Shown here: one piece after another, positions 48,562-52,158 of the stretch | How the letters are laid out: the number at the start of each line of letters is the position of its first letter | Numbering within the stretch: the stretch's first letter is position 1 | Assembly (NCBI GenBank): GCA_947588765.1 | Contig: CANPZG010000001.1 | Coordinates: 12,658-76,657 of the forward strand | DNA length: 64,000 nucleotides | Direction: 5' to 3' | Origin: an uncultured Bacilli bacterium | Lineage (GTDB): Bacteria > Bacillota_I > Bacilli_A > RF39 > UBA660 | Position numbers and translations under genes: made by a program | The notes under the pieces: model-generated | The model's database searches: none | What the model was told of the DNA's origin: nothing | Seen by the model: only the letters and a program-made list of their open reading frames with translations

Positions 48562-49266
48562 ATGGAAAAAGATGCTTTTGAAATGACTGATAAAGAAGTA
48601 TTAAATGTGGATATTCTAAAGGAAACTATTAATAGTAATAATAGTGTTAGTAATCTTGAAGAATATTTTAAAGGAGAAAAGAAAAAGTTATTGGCTAAAT
48701 TAGCAAAAGATATAAAACTATCTAAGATAAAAGAAGGTATAGTTTATGGTATTTTAACTTTAATTTGTGCTTCTTTAGGTTTAACTATTCATGGTTTTAT
48801 TTCTACCGAAGCTGTAATTAATTCCTTTTTTTCATTTATTGCGGCTGGTGCTTTAGGTGGTTCTATAGTTTATCTTGGCTTAAGTCCTTATTTTCAAAAA
48901 CAAAGAGCTAATATAAATAAAGAGTTTGAAAGAAATTTTAGCTTTATAAGTGAACAAGAAAAATCTTGTCAAAATATAAGAAATAATAATGATAAAATAG
49001 TAAACATTTCCAATGATTTAGTAAAGACTAGTGAAGTAGTGCCTACTAAAAATTTTGATTACAGCGATTTGTTAATCGTTGGTACAAATGAAGAATTATG
49101 TAATTTTTATAATGTTGAACCTAATACTAAAGAAGCTGGTAATTTGTATTTAATTATTGATACTTTAAAATGTGTCGAAGATGATGCTAAAAGTTTTTAT
49201 TACGAACAATTAATGAAAATTTATGAAGAAAATCATGCTAGTAAAAGAACGTTAACAAGAAATTAA
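48562..49266 (+). CDS. hypothetical membrane protein
   Basis: Two central TM helices; no motif. Confidence 0.35.
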   Translation: MEKDAFEMTDKEVLNVDILKETINSNNSVSNLEEYFKGEKKKLLAKLAKDIKLSKIKEGIVYGILTLICASLGLTIHGFISTEAVINSFFSFIAAGALGGSIVYLGLSPYFQKQRANINKEFERNFSFISEQEKSCQNIRNNNDKIVNISNDLVKTSEVVPTKNFDYSDLLIVGTNEELCNFYNVEPNTKEAGNLYLIIDTLKCVEDDAKSFYYEQLMKIYEENHASKRTLTRN

Positions 49267-50534: not shown

Positions 50535-50563
50535 ATTGCATTATCGCCTTTGTTATGATAAAA
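50535..50563 (+). promoter_or_regulatory. sigma-A promoter of the tRNA operon
   Basis: TTGCAT, 17 nt, TAAAAT, about 30 nt upstream of tRNA-Val. Confidence 0.6.
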
Positions 50564-50595
50564 TGAGTTATGTCATCGGGTGATGTATGCATTTT

Positions 50596-50672
50596 GGGCG
50601 CTTAGCTCAGTTGGTTAGAGCACCTGCCTTACAAGCAGGGGGTCATAGGTTCGAGTCCTATAGCGCCCACCA
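50596..50672 (+). tRNA. tRNA-Val(UAC)
   Basis: Cloverleaf folds by hand. Anticodon loop CUUACAA; encoded CCA. Confidence 0.85.
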
Positions 50673-50685
50673 TTATTTTTTTATT

Positions 50686-50996
50686 GCCGACTTAGCGTAA
50701 CTGGCAGCGCAACTGACTTGTGGGATAGAGTGTTTTTACACCTTGAACTATCTTGCACCCTTAAGTGGAAACATTTAAGGTGGATGCCGCTAATTCGGGG
50801 AACTCTTAATAAACTAAAAAGTTTATATGACAATCCCGAGCTAGGTTAATACCGAGTGTAGAGACTTTATACGGTGAGCCTAAGTCTTAGTGATATGGCT
50901 AAGAGAAAGTCCAGACTACAAACAATTAAATTGGTAGTGAAAGCTATAGTAGTATGAATCAGTAGGTTGGGGGTTCGACTCCCTCAGTCGGCACCA
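50686..50996 (+). tRNA. tRNA-Thr(UGU) interrupted by a 235-nt group I intron (exons 50686-50721 and 50957-50996)
   Basis: The joined exons give ACTGA-CTTGTAA-TCAGT-AGGTT-GGGGGTTCGACTCCCTC-AGTCGGCACCA, a canonical tRNA-Thr(UGU). The insert lies between nt 36 and 37. Confidence 0.8.
50722..50956 (+). ncRNA. group I intron (IC3-like), no ORF
   Basis: Preceded by an exon U and ends with G. Contains AAUUCGGGGAA, GAGUGUAGAGACU..ACGG, CCUAAG and AAGUCCAGACUA, which match conserved core segments of the Azoarcus/Anabaena tRNA introns as I recall them. Confidence 0.7.
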
Positions 50997-51002
50997 TTTT
51001 TT

Positions 51003-51086
51003 GGAGGGATAGCGAAGTGGCCAAACGCGGCAGACTGTAAATCTGTTCCTTCGGGTTCCATGGTTCAAATCCATGTCCCTCCACCA
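51003..51086 (+). tRNA. tRNA-Tyr(GUA)
   Basis: Anticodon loop CUGUAAA; long variable arm; CCA encoded. Confidence 0.85.
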
Positions 51087-51094
51087 TTAATGTT

Positions 51095-51170
51095 TGCCTC
51101 GTAGCCAAGTGGCAAGGCATCAGACTTTGACTCTGACATTTCGGTGGTTCGAATCCACCCGAGGCAGCCA
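51095..51170 (+). tRNA. tRNA-Gln(UUG)
   Basis: Acceptor TGCCTCG/CGAGGCA; anticodon loop CUUUGAC; discriminator G; CCA. Confidence 0.85.
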
Positions 51171-51186
51171 TTTTTTAAATATATAT

Positions 51187-51262
51187 GTTCCGCTAGCTCA
51201 GTAGGTAGAGCATTTGACTTTTAATCAAAGGGTCTCGAGTTCGAATCTCGAGCGGGACACCA
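51187..51262 (+). tRNA. tRNA-Lys(UUU)
   Basis: Anticodon loop CUUUUAA; CCA encoded. Confidence 0.85.
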
Positions 51263-51655: not shown

Positions 51656-52087
51656 TTATGATTTTATATTATCTTTTATATTTGTATAAATTGGTTTTAA
51701 AAGATTTTCATCTTTTAATTTTAGTATAAGTTGTACTAATTCATCTAGCAATTCTGGATCTATATATGCTATAATTTTATATTCAATTTTACTTTTGTCA
51801 AAATAATATAATTGATCCGCTTTAATATAACCTTCTTTATTATTTATATTTTCACCAGAAATTTTTTCTTCTTTTACTGCTAAATTTTGTTCGAATCTAA
51901 GTTTTTTCTTTTTATGTTCCTCATCATGAAAGCTACATAGCATATTAGAAACAAAATCATATCTAAAACCTTCAACAAAGTCTGGTTCATCATTTATAAC
52001 TACAAAAGAATGTTTAGGTACTATTTCGCCATATTCATTCTTAAATTCCTTTATTACAATTACATCACCTAATTTGCACATTTTCAT
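51656..52087 (-). CDS. hypothetical protein with N-terminal PemK/MazF-like resemblance (tentative)
   Basis: CKLGDVIVIKEF....HSFVVINDE and a later Q..Y.DK..I pattern loosely resemble the MazF/Kid SH3-like fold. Confidence 0.35.
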   Translation of the reverse strand: MKMCKLGDVIVIKEFKNEYGEIVPKHSFVVINDEPDFVEGFRYDFVSNMLCSFHDEEHKKKKLRFEQNLAVKEEKISGENINNKEGYIKADQLYYFDKSKIEYKIIAYIDPELLDELVQLILKLKDENLLKPIYTNIKDNIKS

Positions 52088-52158
52088 CACAACCTTTCTT
52101 TAATATTGTTAAATTAGTTTATTTAATAAAATATTTGTTTGAAATATTTTATAATTAA

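Follow-up and report, generated by a model that had tools for sequence, protein, structure and literature searches.

We examined a tRNA-Thr(UGU) gene at positions 50686 to 50996 of a 64,000-nucleotide (nt) stretch of a contig from an uncultured Bacilli bacterium; this whole stretch is called the window below. The gene is split by a 235-nt insert. Our analysis indicated that the insert is most probably (probability about 0.88) a functional, small group I intron of subgroup IC3, which carries no open reading frame (ORF) and lies between nucleotides 36 and 37 of tRNA-Thr(UGU), for which the window shows no other gene. The analysis established the structure of the gene, the homology of the insert to published IC3 introns, a covariation-supported fold, and a presence/absence polymorphism among related operons.

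Structure of the interrupted gene and identity of the insert

The interrupted gene consists of the following parts, the exons being delimited with ARAGORN:

50686-50721, plus strand: 5' exon of tRNA-Thr(UGU), GCCGACTTAGCGTAACTGGCAGCGCAACTGACTTGT, called whether the exons were joined or introns were allowed; holds the 5' strands of the acceptor and anticodon stems, the D arm, C32, U33 and anticodon U34 G35 U36
50722-50956, plus strand: group I intron, 235 nt, IC3-like, ORF-less; first base G50722, last base omega-G50956
50957-50996, plus strand: 3' exon of tRNA-Thr(UGU), AATCAGTAGGTTGGGGGTTCGACTCCCTCAGTCGGCACCA; holds A37, A38, the 3' strands of the anticodon and acceptor stems, the variable loop, the T arm, A73 and CCA

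ARAGORN read the two joined exons as tRNA-Thr(tgt), 76 nt in length. The 7-bp acceptor stem of this tRNA is perfect, its D and T arms are normal, its anticodon loop is CUUGUAA, and the CCA is encoded in the gene. When introns were allowed, the genomic locus was returned as tRNA-Thr(tgt) i(37,235). The exon coordinates given in a preliminary description of this DNA were thus exact. That description had also placed the insert between nucleotides 36 and 37, after a U and ending in G, and in the sequence it is indeed preceded by U36 and ends with G50956. A shifted splice boundary was considered and rejected, as only TGT/...G/AA (slashes mark the splice sites) yields U(-1), omega-G and a 7-nt loop together. 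The exact boundary matters because two-base shifts are a known cause of confusion between Asn and Thr, as described in a recent survey (PMC13011429). With default settings, neither ARAGORN nor the Rfam tRNA model called the gene; they reported four tRNA genes in 50596-51262 (Val, Tyr, Gln and Lys) and left a 330-nt hole between Val and Tyr.

The preliminary description had identified the insert as an IC3-type group I intron from four strings. We built IC3 profiles from introns that Table S5 of Nakagawa 2026 assigns to IC3, whose hosts were tRNA-Leu, Lys, Asn, Ile2 and Arg, with no Thr among them. The results showed that an nhmmer profile of 14 IC3 introns had a sole match in the 64 kb, at 50751-50956 (82.6 bits, E=3e-25), which terminated exactly at the proposed omega-G50956. 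A covariance model (R1) of 8 published IC3 introns, trimmed to P3-P9, also had a sole match in the 64 kb, at 50780-50957 (112.6 bits, E~8e-32 from a rough calibration), and this match spanned the full length of the model (positions 1-184). Pairwise identity of the window intron to published IC3 introns was 46-63%, with the highest values for Bacteroidota tRNA-Leu, Bacteroidota tRNA-Arg(UCU) and Bacillota_A tRNA-Asn introns. All four strings were located in the insert: AATTCGGGGAA at 50792-50802, GAGTGTAGAGACT at 50854-50866 followed by ACGG at 50871-50874, CCTAAG at 50879-50884, and AAGTCCAGACTA at 50907-50918. The insert also has the compact IC3 architecture, with GAAA-capped P2 and P9 and an 11-nt receptor in P8, and without P2.1 or large peripheral domains. 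Judged on these sequence features, the intron is a member of subgroup IC3.

As the preliminary description had stated, the insert encodes no protein: only mechanical ORFs of 43 and 50 amino acids (aa) overlap it, and no homing endonuclease was found in the window copy. The window copy looks like an ORF-less derivative or relative of introns that carry an HNH ORF, which are described below. A BLAST search of the locus against phage records was uninformative: it yielded short matches to the cores of other group I introns, from phages of Bacteroides, Pelagibacter and Agrobacterium, and nothing else.

The gene was described as part of a five-tRNA cluster, and this held: the genes lie on the same strand, with Thr second, and presumably form one transcript. 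The tRNA-Tyr gene of the window is uninterrupted. The cluster and its surroundings are as follows:

50536-50564, plus strand: candidate promoter found by eye, hexamers TTGCAT and TAAAAT 17 nt apart, the second preceded by TGn; low confidence
50596-51262, plus strand: cluster Val(UAC)-Thr(UGU, interrupted)-Tyr(GUA)-Gln(UUG)-Lys(UUU), spacers 6-16 nt (ARAGORN, Rfam)
50596-50672, plus strand: tRNA-Val
51003-51086, plus strand: tRNA-Tyr
51095-51170, plus strand: tRNA-Gln
51187-51262, plus strand: tRNA-Lys

A consensus promoter and terminator scan flagged no plus-strand promoter upstream of the cluster, the TTGCAT/TAAAAT candidate included. Its sole terminator call (50975-51000) is a false positive made up of the T arm of tRNA-Thr and a TTTTT spacer. 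The window has a GC content of 27% (intron 38%) and is bacterial chromosome, with ligA-, trmD-, ftsK- and glyQS-like ORFs; Pfam confirmed CotJB, a CotJC-like Mn catalase, SpoU, SepF and DivIVA. The earlier label of a low-GC spore-former-like Firmicute is therefore reasonable. The flanking ORFs at 48562-49266 (plus strand, 234 aa) and 51656-52090 (minus strand, 144 aa) had no Pfam match; the 234-aa ORF adjoins alr in same-species contigs and is conserved there. These contigs, found through the upstream alanine racemase, all stop at or before the tRNA cluster and are uninformative on intron presence or absence between strains. The organism is present in, for instance, ERZ27249446 and ERR10663692.

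Fold of the intron and alternative explanations

The preliminary description had proposed a P1-P9 folding check. A P1-P9 structure that includes the P3/P7 pseudoknot was drawn manually on the sequence of the window copy, and we evaluated it on an alignment (A1) of 50 copies less than 92% identical to one another, with 10 exon nt on each side. The features of the structure are:

50719-50757, plus strand: P1, exon U34 G35 U36 and intron GGGAUAG (50719-50728) against CUAUCUUGCA (50748-50757)
50730-50741, plus strand: variable capping hairpin of P1
50759-50780, plus strand: P2 hairpin, 9 bp, with GAAA tetraloop L2 at 50768-50771; compensatory changes in 8 of 9 pairs
50784-50789, plus strand: P3 5' strand, partner 50872-50877, in a pseudoknot with P7; compensatory changes in 3 of 6 pairs
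50794-50840, plus strand: P4 and P5 domain; P4 50794-50800/50834-50840, P5 50804-50805/50829-50830, J4/5, and a P5a hairpin with an AAAA loop
50841-50856, plus strand: P6 hairpin; compensatory changes in 4 of 6 pairs
50861-50866, plus strand: P7 5' strand GAGACU with bulged A50862, partner 50908-50912; invariant in 50 of 50
50872-50877, plus strand: P3 3' strand
50878-50899, plus strand: P8 with an 11-nt GAAA-tetraloop receptor, CCUAAG 50879-50884 and UAUGG 50894-50898; compensatory changes in 4 of 6 pairs
50908-50912, plus strand: P7 3' strand AGUCC; invariant
50915-50953, plus strand: P9.0 domain, ACUAC 50915-50919 and GUAGU 50949-50953; compensatory changes in 6 of 13 pairs
50923-50933, plus strand: P9a hairpin
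50934-50947, plus strand: P9 hairpin with L9 GAAA at 50939-50942; the AUG after P9.0 ends in omega-G50956

The results showed that the 64 pairs in 12 helices are 99.0% standard pairs over the 50 copies, compared with 34.8-40.1% when the 3' partners were slid by 1-3 columns. Both sides had changed in 29 pairs (5-9 in the slid controls), amounting to 306 such cells, and the covariation score was 0.304 against 0.04-0.05 for the slid partners. None of 500 column shuffles matched the observed values. Compensatory changes were found in P2, P3, P5, P6, P8, P9.0, P9a and P9, a single P5 pair accounting for 28 compensatory cells. Although the structure was derived from one aligned member, the slid controls and the many double changes make the P1-P9 fold secure. 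Every helix of the P3-P4-P5-P6-P7-P8 core is present in the correct order and in the P3/P7 pseudoknot topology, and the window copy retains every column that is invariant across the 50 sequences. An unconstrained minimum free energy (MFE) fold recovered P1, P2, P4, P5, P9.0, P9 and the tRNA anticodon stem that closes the intron (z=-2.7).

The preliminary description could not identify a P1 pairing with an internal guide sequence (IGS) by eye, but P1 does exist and is supported by covariation. It has 10 pairs, which are 99.2% paired over the alignment, with compensatory change in 3 of them, and it is the helix also recovered in the MFE fold. The IGS is GCA (50755-50757), so that the guide interaction with the exon is only 3 bp; the wobble at the splice site, U50721·G50755, is U·G in all 48 informative sequences. 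U50753-U50754 could pair with A50957-A50958 (A37, A38) as a minimal 2-bp P10. In P7, GAGACU/AGUCC with bulged A50862 resembles the canonical guanosine-site arrangement, with G50863 opposite C50911. G50863-C50911 is the predicted guanosine-binding pair, a role that we assume by comparison with the Tetrahymena G264-C311 arrangement. The L2 columns G57, A58, A59 and A60 are invariant in A1, as is the GAAA of L9. We take the P8 motif to be an 11-nt receptor docked by L2, by analogy with the Azoarcus intron, and an internal loop of P5 resembles a tetraloop receptor.

Because the splicing steps are drawn from homology, we infer them, and the same applies to catalysis, the tertiary contacts, the mode of mobility and the efficiency of splicing, which the preliminary description had held must be high. 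The Val-Thr-Tyr-Gln-Lys cluster would be transcribed as a single precursor, in which the intron would fold into P1-P9; its GAAA loop L2 would dock on the P8 receptor, and L9, likewise GAAA, on the P5 region. By pairing with the 3-nt guide GCA, the anticodon UGU would bring the U36·G wobble to the 5' splice site. Free guanosine would then attack after U36, omega-G50956 would take its place in the P7 pocket, and exon ligation would restore the loop CUUGUAA. The tRNAs would be freed by RNase P and 3' processing. The window copy would descend from a mobile family that targets the conserved anticodon stem-loop of tRNA-Thr(UGU) and in which L5 of the longer members encodes an HNH homing endonuclease.

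Several observations weigh against a functional intron of this kind. RF00028, the Rfam group I intron model, gave no match to the intron at its gathering score (23.8 vs 50 bits). Its sub-threshold alignment ran from 50724 to 50932 against the full model (E=5.4e-4 in a 501-nt search) and covered the P3-P8 core, with P7 aligned. The seed of RF00028 contains no bacterial sequences, and cut-offs of only 18-20 bits have been applied when bacterial tRNA introns were surveyed (10.1101/2020.01.27.920355). A covariance-model search had been put forward earlier as a check on the intron; it stayed below the gathering score with RF00028, and the models built from IC3 introns gave the decisive match. P4 and P7 are invariant, which makes covariation uninformative there. 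The outermost P3 pair of the window copy is an A·A mismatch, as in 8 of the 50 sequences, and is its sole blemish. Our view covers 64 kb of the genome, and a second tRNA-Thr(UGU) gene could lie elsewhere. Finally, the AU-rich intron with its P10 of about 2 bp might need a protein chaperone or high Mg2+.

This last point bears on whether the insert is a group I intron by descent whose splicing in vivo depends on a host protein, such as a chaperone or maturase-like cofactor, and is not autonomous. The GC content of the intron (38%, against 27% for the genome), the fact that the exon supplies only 3 bp of P1, the short P10 and the MFE z-score of only -2.7 would fit such dependence. However, the stabilising tertiary motifs of self-sufficient IC3 introns (the GAAA of L2 and L9 and the 11-nt receptor of P8) are all conserved, no candidate cofactor gene is linked to the intron, and the ORF of its relatives encodes an HNH nuclease. 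We consider host-protein dependence unlikely. The P3 mismatch and the limited view of the genome could instead point to a dead relic, that is, a tRNA-Thr pseudogene with an inactive intron, with tRNA-Thr(UGU) supplied by another gene. This is very improbable because the exons are flawless and the core is intact: all family-invariant core positions are kept and the other helices are all paired. In addition, a second uninterrupted Thr(UGU) gene within 8 kb was seen in 0 of the 119 intron-bearing GTDB loci listed, and the interrupted gene fills the normal slot of a conserved operon.

The preliminary description had also allowed that the halves might be decayed tRNA fragments. Such unrelated or decayed fragments, or a trans-joined split tRNA around some other non-coding RNA, would account for the failure of the default tRNA finders to call the gene, and for that alone. 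The exons form one canonical tRNA, the insert matches the IC3 models end to end, and over 100 species show this arrangement, the tRNA stems and the intron helices both having changed in a compensatory manner. The joined tRNA, the tRNA stems of the family, the intron covariation and the IC3 profile matches refute this explanation, which retains practically no weight.

Relatives at the same site and mobility of the family

We scanned GTDB species genomes with AGTCCRGAC-N25-55-GAATCAGTAGGT, which represents the P7 3' strand, omega-G and the 3' exon, and obtained at least 119 loci. The results showed homologous introns at tRNA-Thr(UGU) 36/37 in at least 112 GTDB species loci, 102 of them Firmicute-type and 10 proteobacterial. 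For 102 of the 119 loci listed, the ARAGORN call was tRNA-Thr(tgt) interrupted at position 37. Most introns of these 102 measure 205-245 nt, and a few reach 309-659 nt. U(-1) and omega-G are present in every one of the 102 Firmicute-type loci and in the window, which together comprise 23 distinct foldable mature tRNAs whose stems differ in a compensatory manner. Their hosts are labelled uncultured Clostridia, Bacilli, Clostridium sp. CAG:245/492/508/780, Mollicutes, Mycoplasmatota, Erysipelotrichaceae and Lachnospiraceae, and come from human, rabbit, ruminant and mouse gut. The closest intron copies among the matches listed were 83-88% identical and belong to metagenome-assembled genomes (MAGs) of "uncultured Bacilli"; at several such loci the flanking alanine racemase and downstream genes are shared with the window at 67-76% nucleotide identity. 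The remaining 7 of the 119 loci match the family profile, and 6 of these sit at or a few bases from the end of the locus.

The 10 proteobacterial loci were among those that ARAGORN mis-called, as Ile(tat) or His. Its long-intron calls of "tRNA-Stop(tta)", Ile(tat), His and 1-kb "introns" were rejected as spurious, with neighbouring genes fused or boundaries misplaced. When every U(-1) boundary was tested, all 10 were re-derived as tRNA-Thr(UGU) cut at 36/37 with omega-G. Nine come from Rhodobacteraceae, namely cultured Salipiger, Ruegeria, Leisingera and Paracoccus and MAGs of Ruegeria, Roseovarius and Salipiger (loci L004, L019, L054, L060, L076, L087, L088, L111 and L117), and one from a gammaproteobacterial MAG (L013). 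Salipiger aestuarii DSM 22011 and Paracoccus rhizosphaerae CCM 7904 are among the cultured strains that carry the intron. The Rhodobacteraceae introns have the same host tRNA, insertion point, IGS context (UUGCA) and IC3 core as the window intron, but unlike it they are GC-rich and 252-256 nt long. A profile of the 10 proteobacterial Thr introns scored the window at 57 bits, below the 82.6 bits of the mixed IC3 profile, and so the sequences are compatible with either common descent of the Firmicute and proteobacterial introns or independent capture of the same site.

Some relatives vary in size. In L103 (6284-6796, Clostridium sp. CAG:780), the ribozyme core and the start of the 3' exon are partly duplicated in tandem within an apparent intron of 437 nt, which probably reflects an assembly artefact or a recent duplication. 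Of two ORF-less variants, L104 (309 nt) and L039 (336 nt), one has an insertion of about 75 nt in the P1 capping loop and the other one of about 100 nt in P5; they show which peripheral loops accept cargo.

About a dozen relatives have introns of 618-660 nt, in which extra sequence in L5 encodes a protein of about 136 aa with the motif C..C...EHIDGN...N..LLCPNCH. The last codons of this ORF overlap the P5', P4' and P6 strands. The Pfam HNH model fell just below threshold on it (19.5 vs 21.4 bits), and PHROG HNH-endonuclease families matched a phage-borne copy of the ORF (E=2e-17). The ORF occurs in the following tRNA-Thr introns:

Intact: L012, L058, L072, L073, L075, L081, L107, L113
Frameshifted: L062, L063, L065

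We also found a tRNA cluster on an IMG/VR viral contig, IMGVR_UViG_3300037454_000175, in which tRNA-Thr(UGU) carries an intron with the homing endonuclease gene (HEG) at 36/37 (L120, 3674-4332, minus strand). This intron has a very short P1, UGU/AAAAAAUUGCA. Such a viral contig could serve as a vehicle of spread between hosts.

The neighbouring tRNA-Tyr(GUA) gene holds a sister intron at 35/36 (CUGU/...G/AAA) in 4 GTDB loci among those listed. Its guide is the same GCA, here set against U33 G34 U35. The tRNA-Tyr introns are:

L062, 5594-5790, minus strand
L065, 1011-1212, minus strand
L072, 4752-4956, minus strand
L035, 673-875, plus strand
L200, 6510-6710, plus strand
L232, 2-204, minus strand

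Two metagenome contigs combine a Tyr intron with an uninterrupted Thr gene. A scan with the 38-nt spliced junction revealed uninterrupted tRNA-Thr(UGU) in at least 120 metagenome contigs, at least 61 of which have the order Val-Thr-Tyr-Gln-Lys. As the Tyr intron occurs with and without the Thr intron, and uninterrupted operons occur as well, the Val-Thr-Tyr-Gln-Lys operon is represented in each of its four Thr/Tyr occupancy states. The window represents the Thr-plus, Tyr-minus and HEG-minus state.

It is conceivable, with somewhat less than even odds in our estimation, that a single lineage whose GCA guide reads UGU occupies Thr 36/37 and Tyr 35/36 of one operon, has an HNH-bearing copy in a phage tRNA gene, and extends over two phyla. 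If true, few uncharacterised bacterial tRNA introns would be as widespread, and the lineage would offer a natural system in which to follow site-switching in gut bacteria. With the four occupancy states, the HEG-plus and HEG-minus forms and the phage copy, intron gain, loss and retargeting can be studied in one compact system, and through this family the known hosts of bacterial tRNA introns are joined by a further, well-populated tRNA. The surrounding family, with its Thr/Tyr site switching, HNH-bearing and phage-borne copies and at least 112 species, is a more interesting lead than the window copy. For the window intron itself, the understanding of group I mechanism is unchanged, and it matters in practice chiefly as an annotation pitfall, through which a probably important tRNA gene is overlooked: tRNA-Thr(UGU) probably carries much of threonine decoding in a genome of such low GC content. 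Many uncultured gut Firmicute genomes will appear to be without tRNA-Thr(UGU) because default tRNA finders and the Rfam gathering score miss the gene.

Comparison with known tRNA introns

The classical hosts of bacterial tRNA group I introns are tRNA-Leu(UAA), fMet, Ile(CAU) and Arg(CCU). The preliminary description knew of no described tRNA-Thr host in a Firmicute-like genome, and the novelty was overstated: besides the family in at least 112 public species genomes, the Williams 2020 preprint extends the host list from 4 to 21 site classes, including Thr.5Ug and Thr.3Ug, and its seed alignment contains Rba53.Thr.5Ug (GGU, cut at 36/37), Mti5.Thr.3Ug (UGU, cut at 34/35) and Mba143.Tyr.4Ug (10.1101/2020.01.27.920355). 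As the class is defined there, the window intron, with U(-1) and omega-G at 36/37 of tRNA-Thr, is by its sequence a Thr.5Ug intron. It shares with that class the loop position after nucleotide 36, although the seed Rba53 has the anticodon GGU, not UGU; Mti5 has a UGU tRNA, as in the window, but is cut at 34/35.

Nakagawa 2026 reported divergent tRNA-Thr(GGU) 36/37 introns in Patescibacteria, which grouped with IA introns in the tree and were missed by RF00028 (PMC13011429). They occupy the same site as the window intron and differ from it in the GGU host and the IA grouping. In the same survey of 4,934 complete genomes, Bacillota introns were found only in Arg(UCU), Asn and Ile2, with no Thr(TGT) in the Bacillota rows of Table S5 (PMC13011429). 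We found no published description of a tRNA-Thr(UGU) 36/37 intron family in a literature search that took in neither Table 1 of Williams nor the Pseudomonadota rows of Table S5. The Thr(UGU) family itself may never have been described beyond a catalogue count.

The intron of tRNA-Ile(CAU) in Azoarcus sp. BH72 (IC3; Ile2.5Ug) has the same 36/37 insertion and a 3-bp exon-IGS interaction with a U·G wobble. It also shares with the window the P2 GAAA loop, the P8 receptor CCUAAG/UAUGG, the GUAGAGACU/AGUCCAG strings of P7, the small size and the absence of an ORF. It differs in its host (Ile2, not Thr) and its IGS (GUG, compared with GCA in the window). The window intron is AU-rich, and its P1 is longer, with 10 bp and a capping hairpin. 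Its 3' domain, in which P9.0 encloses P9a and P9, is built like that of the tRNA-Leu introns and unlike the short P9 of Azoarcus.

The tRNA-Leu(UAA) introns of cyanobacteria, plastids and Bacteroidota (IC3; Leu.3Ug) were the top published pairwise matches (61-63% identity). They share with the window AAUUCGGGGAA, AAUCCCGAGC, GUGUAGAGACU and GAGAAAGUCCAGACyACAAA, as well as a P9.0/P9 GAAA 3' domain ending in AUG or ACG. However, they are inserted at 34/35 in the anticodon, not at 36/37 of tRNA-Thr, and their P1 and IGS sequences differ. These comparisons indicate that the window intron fits the existing Thr.5Ug class and subgroup IC3, and that it is a new, or at least not individually described, member of them.

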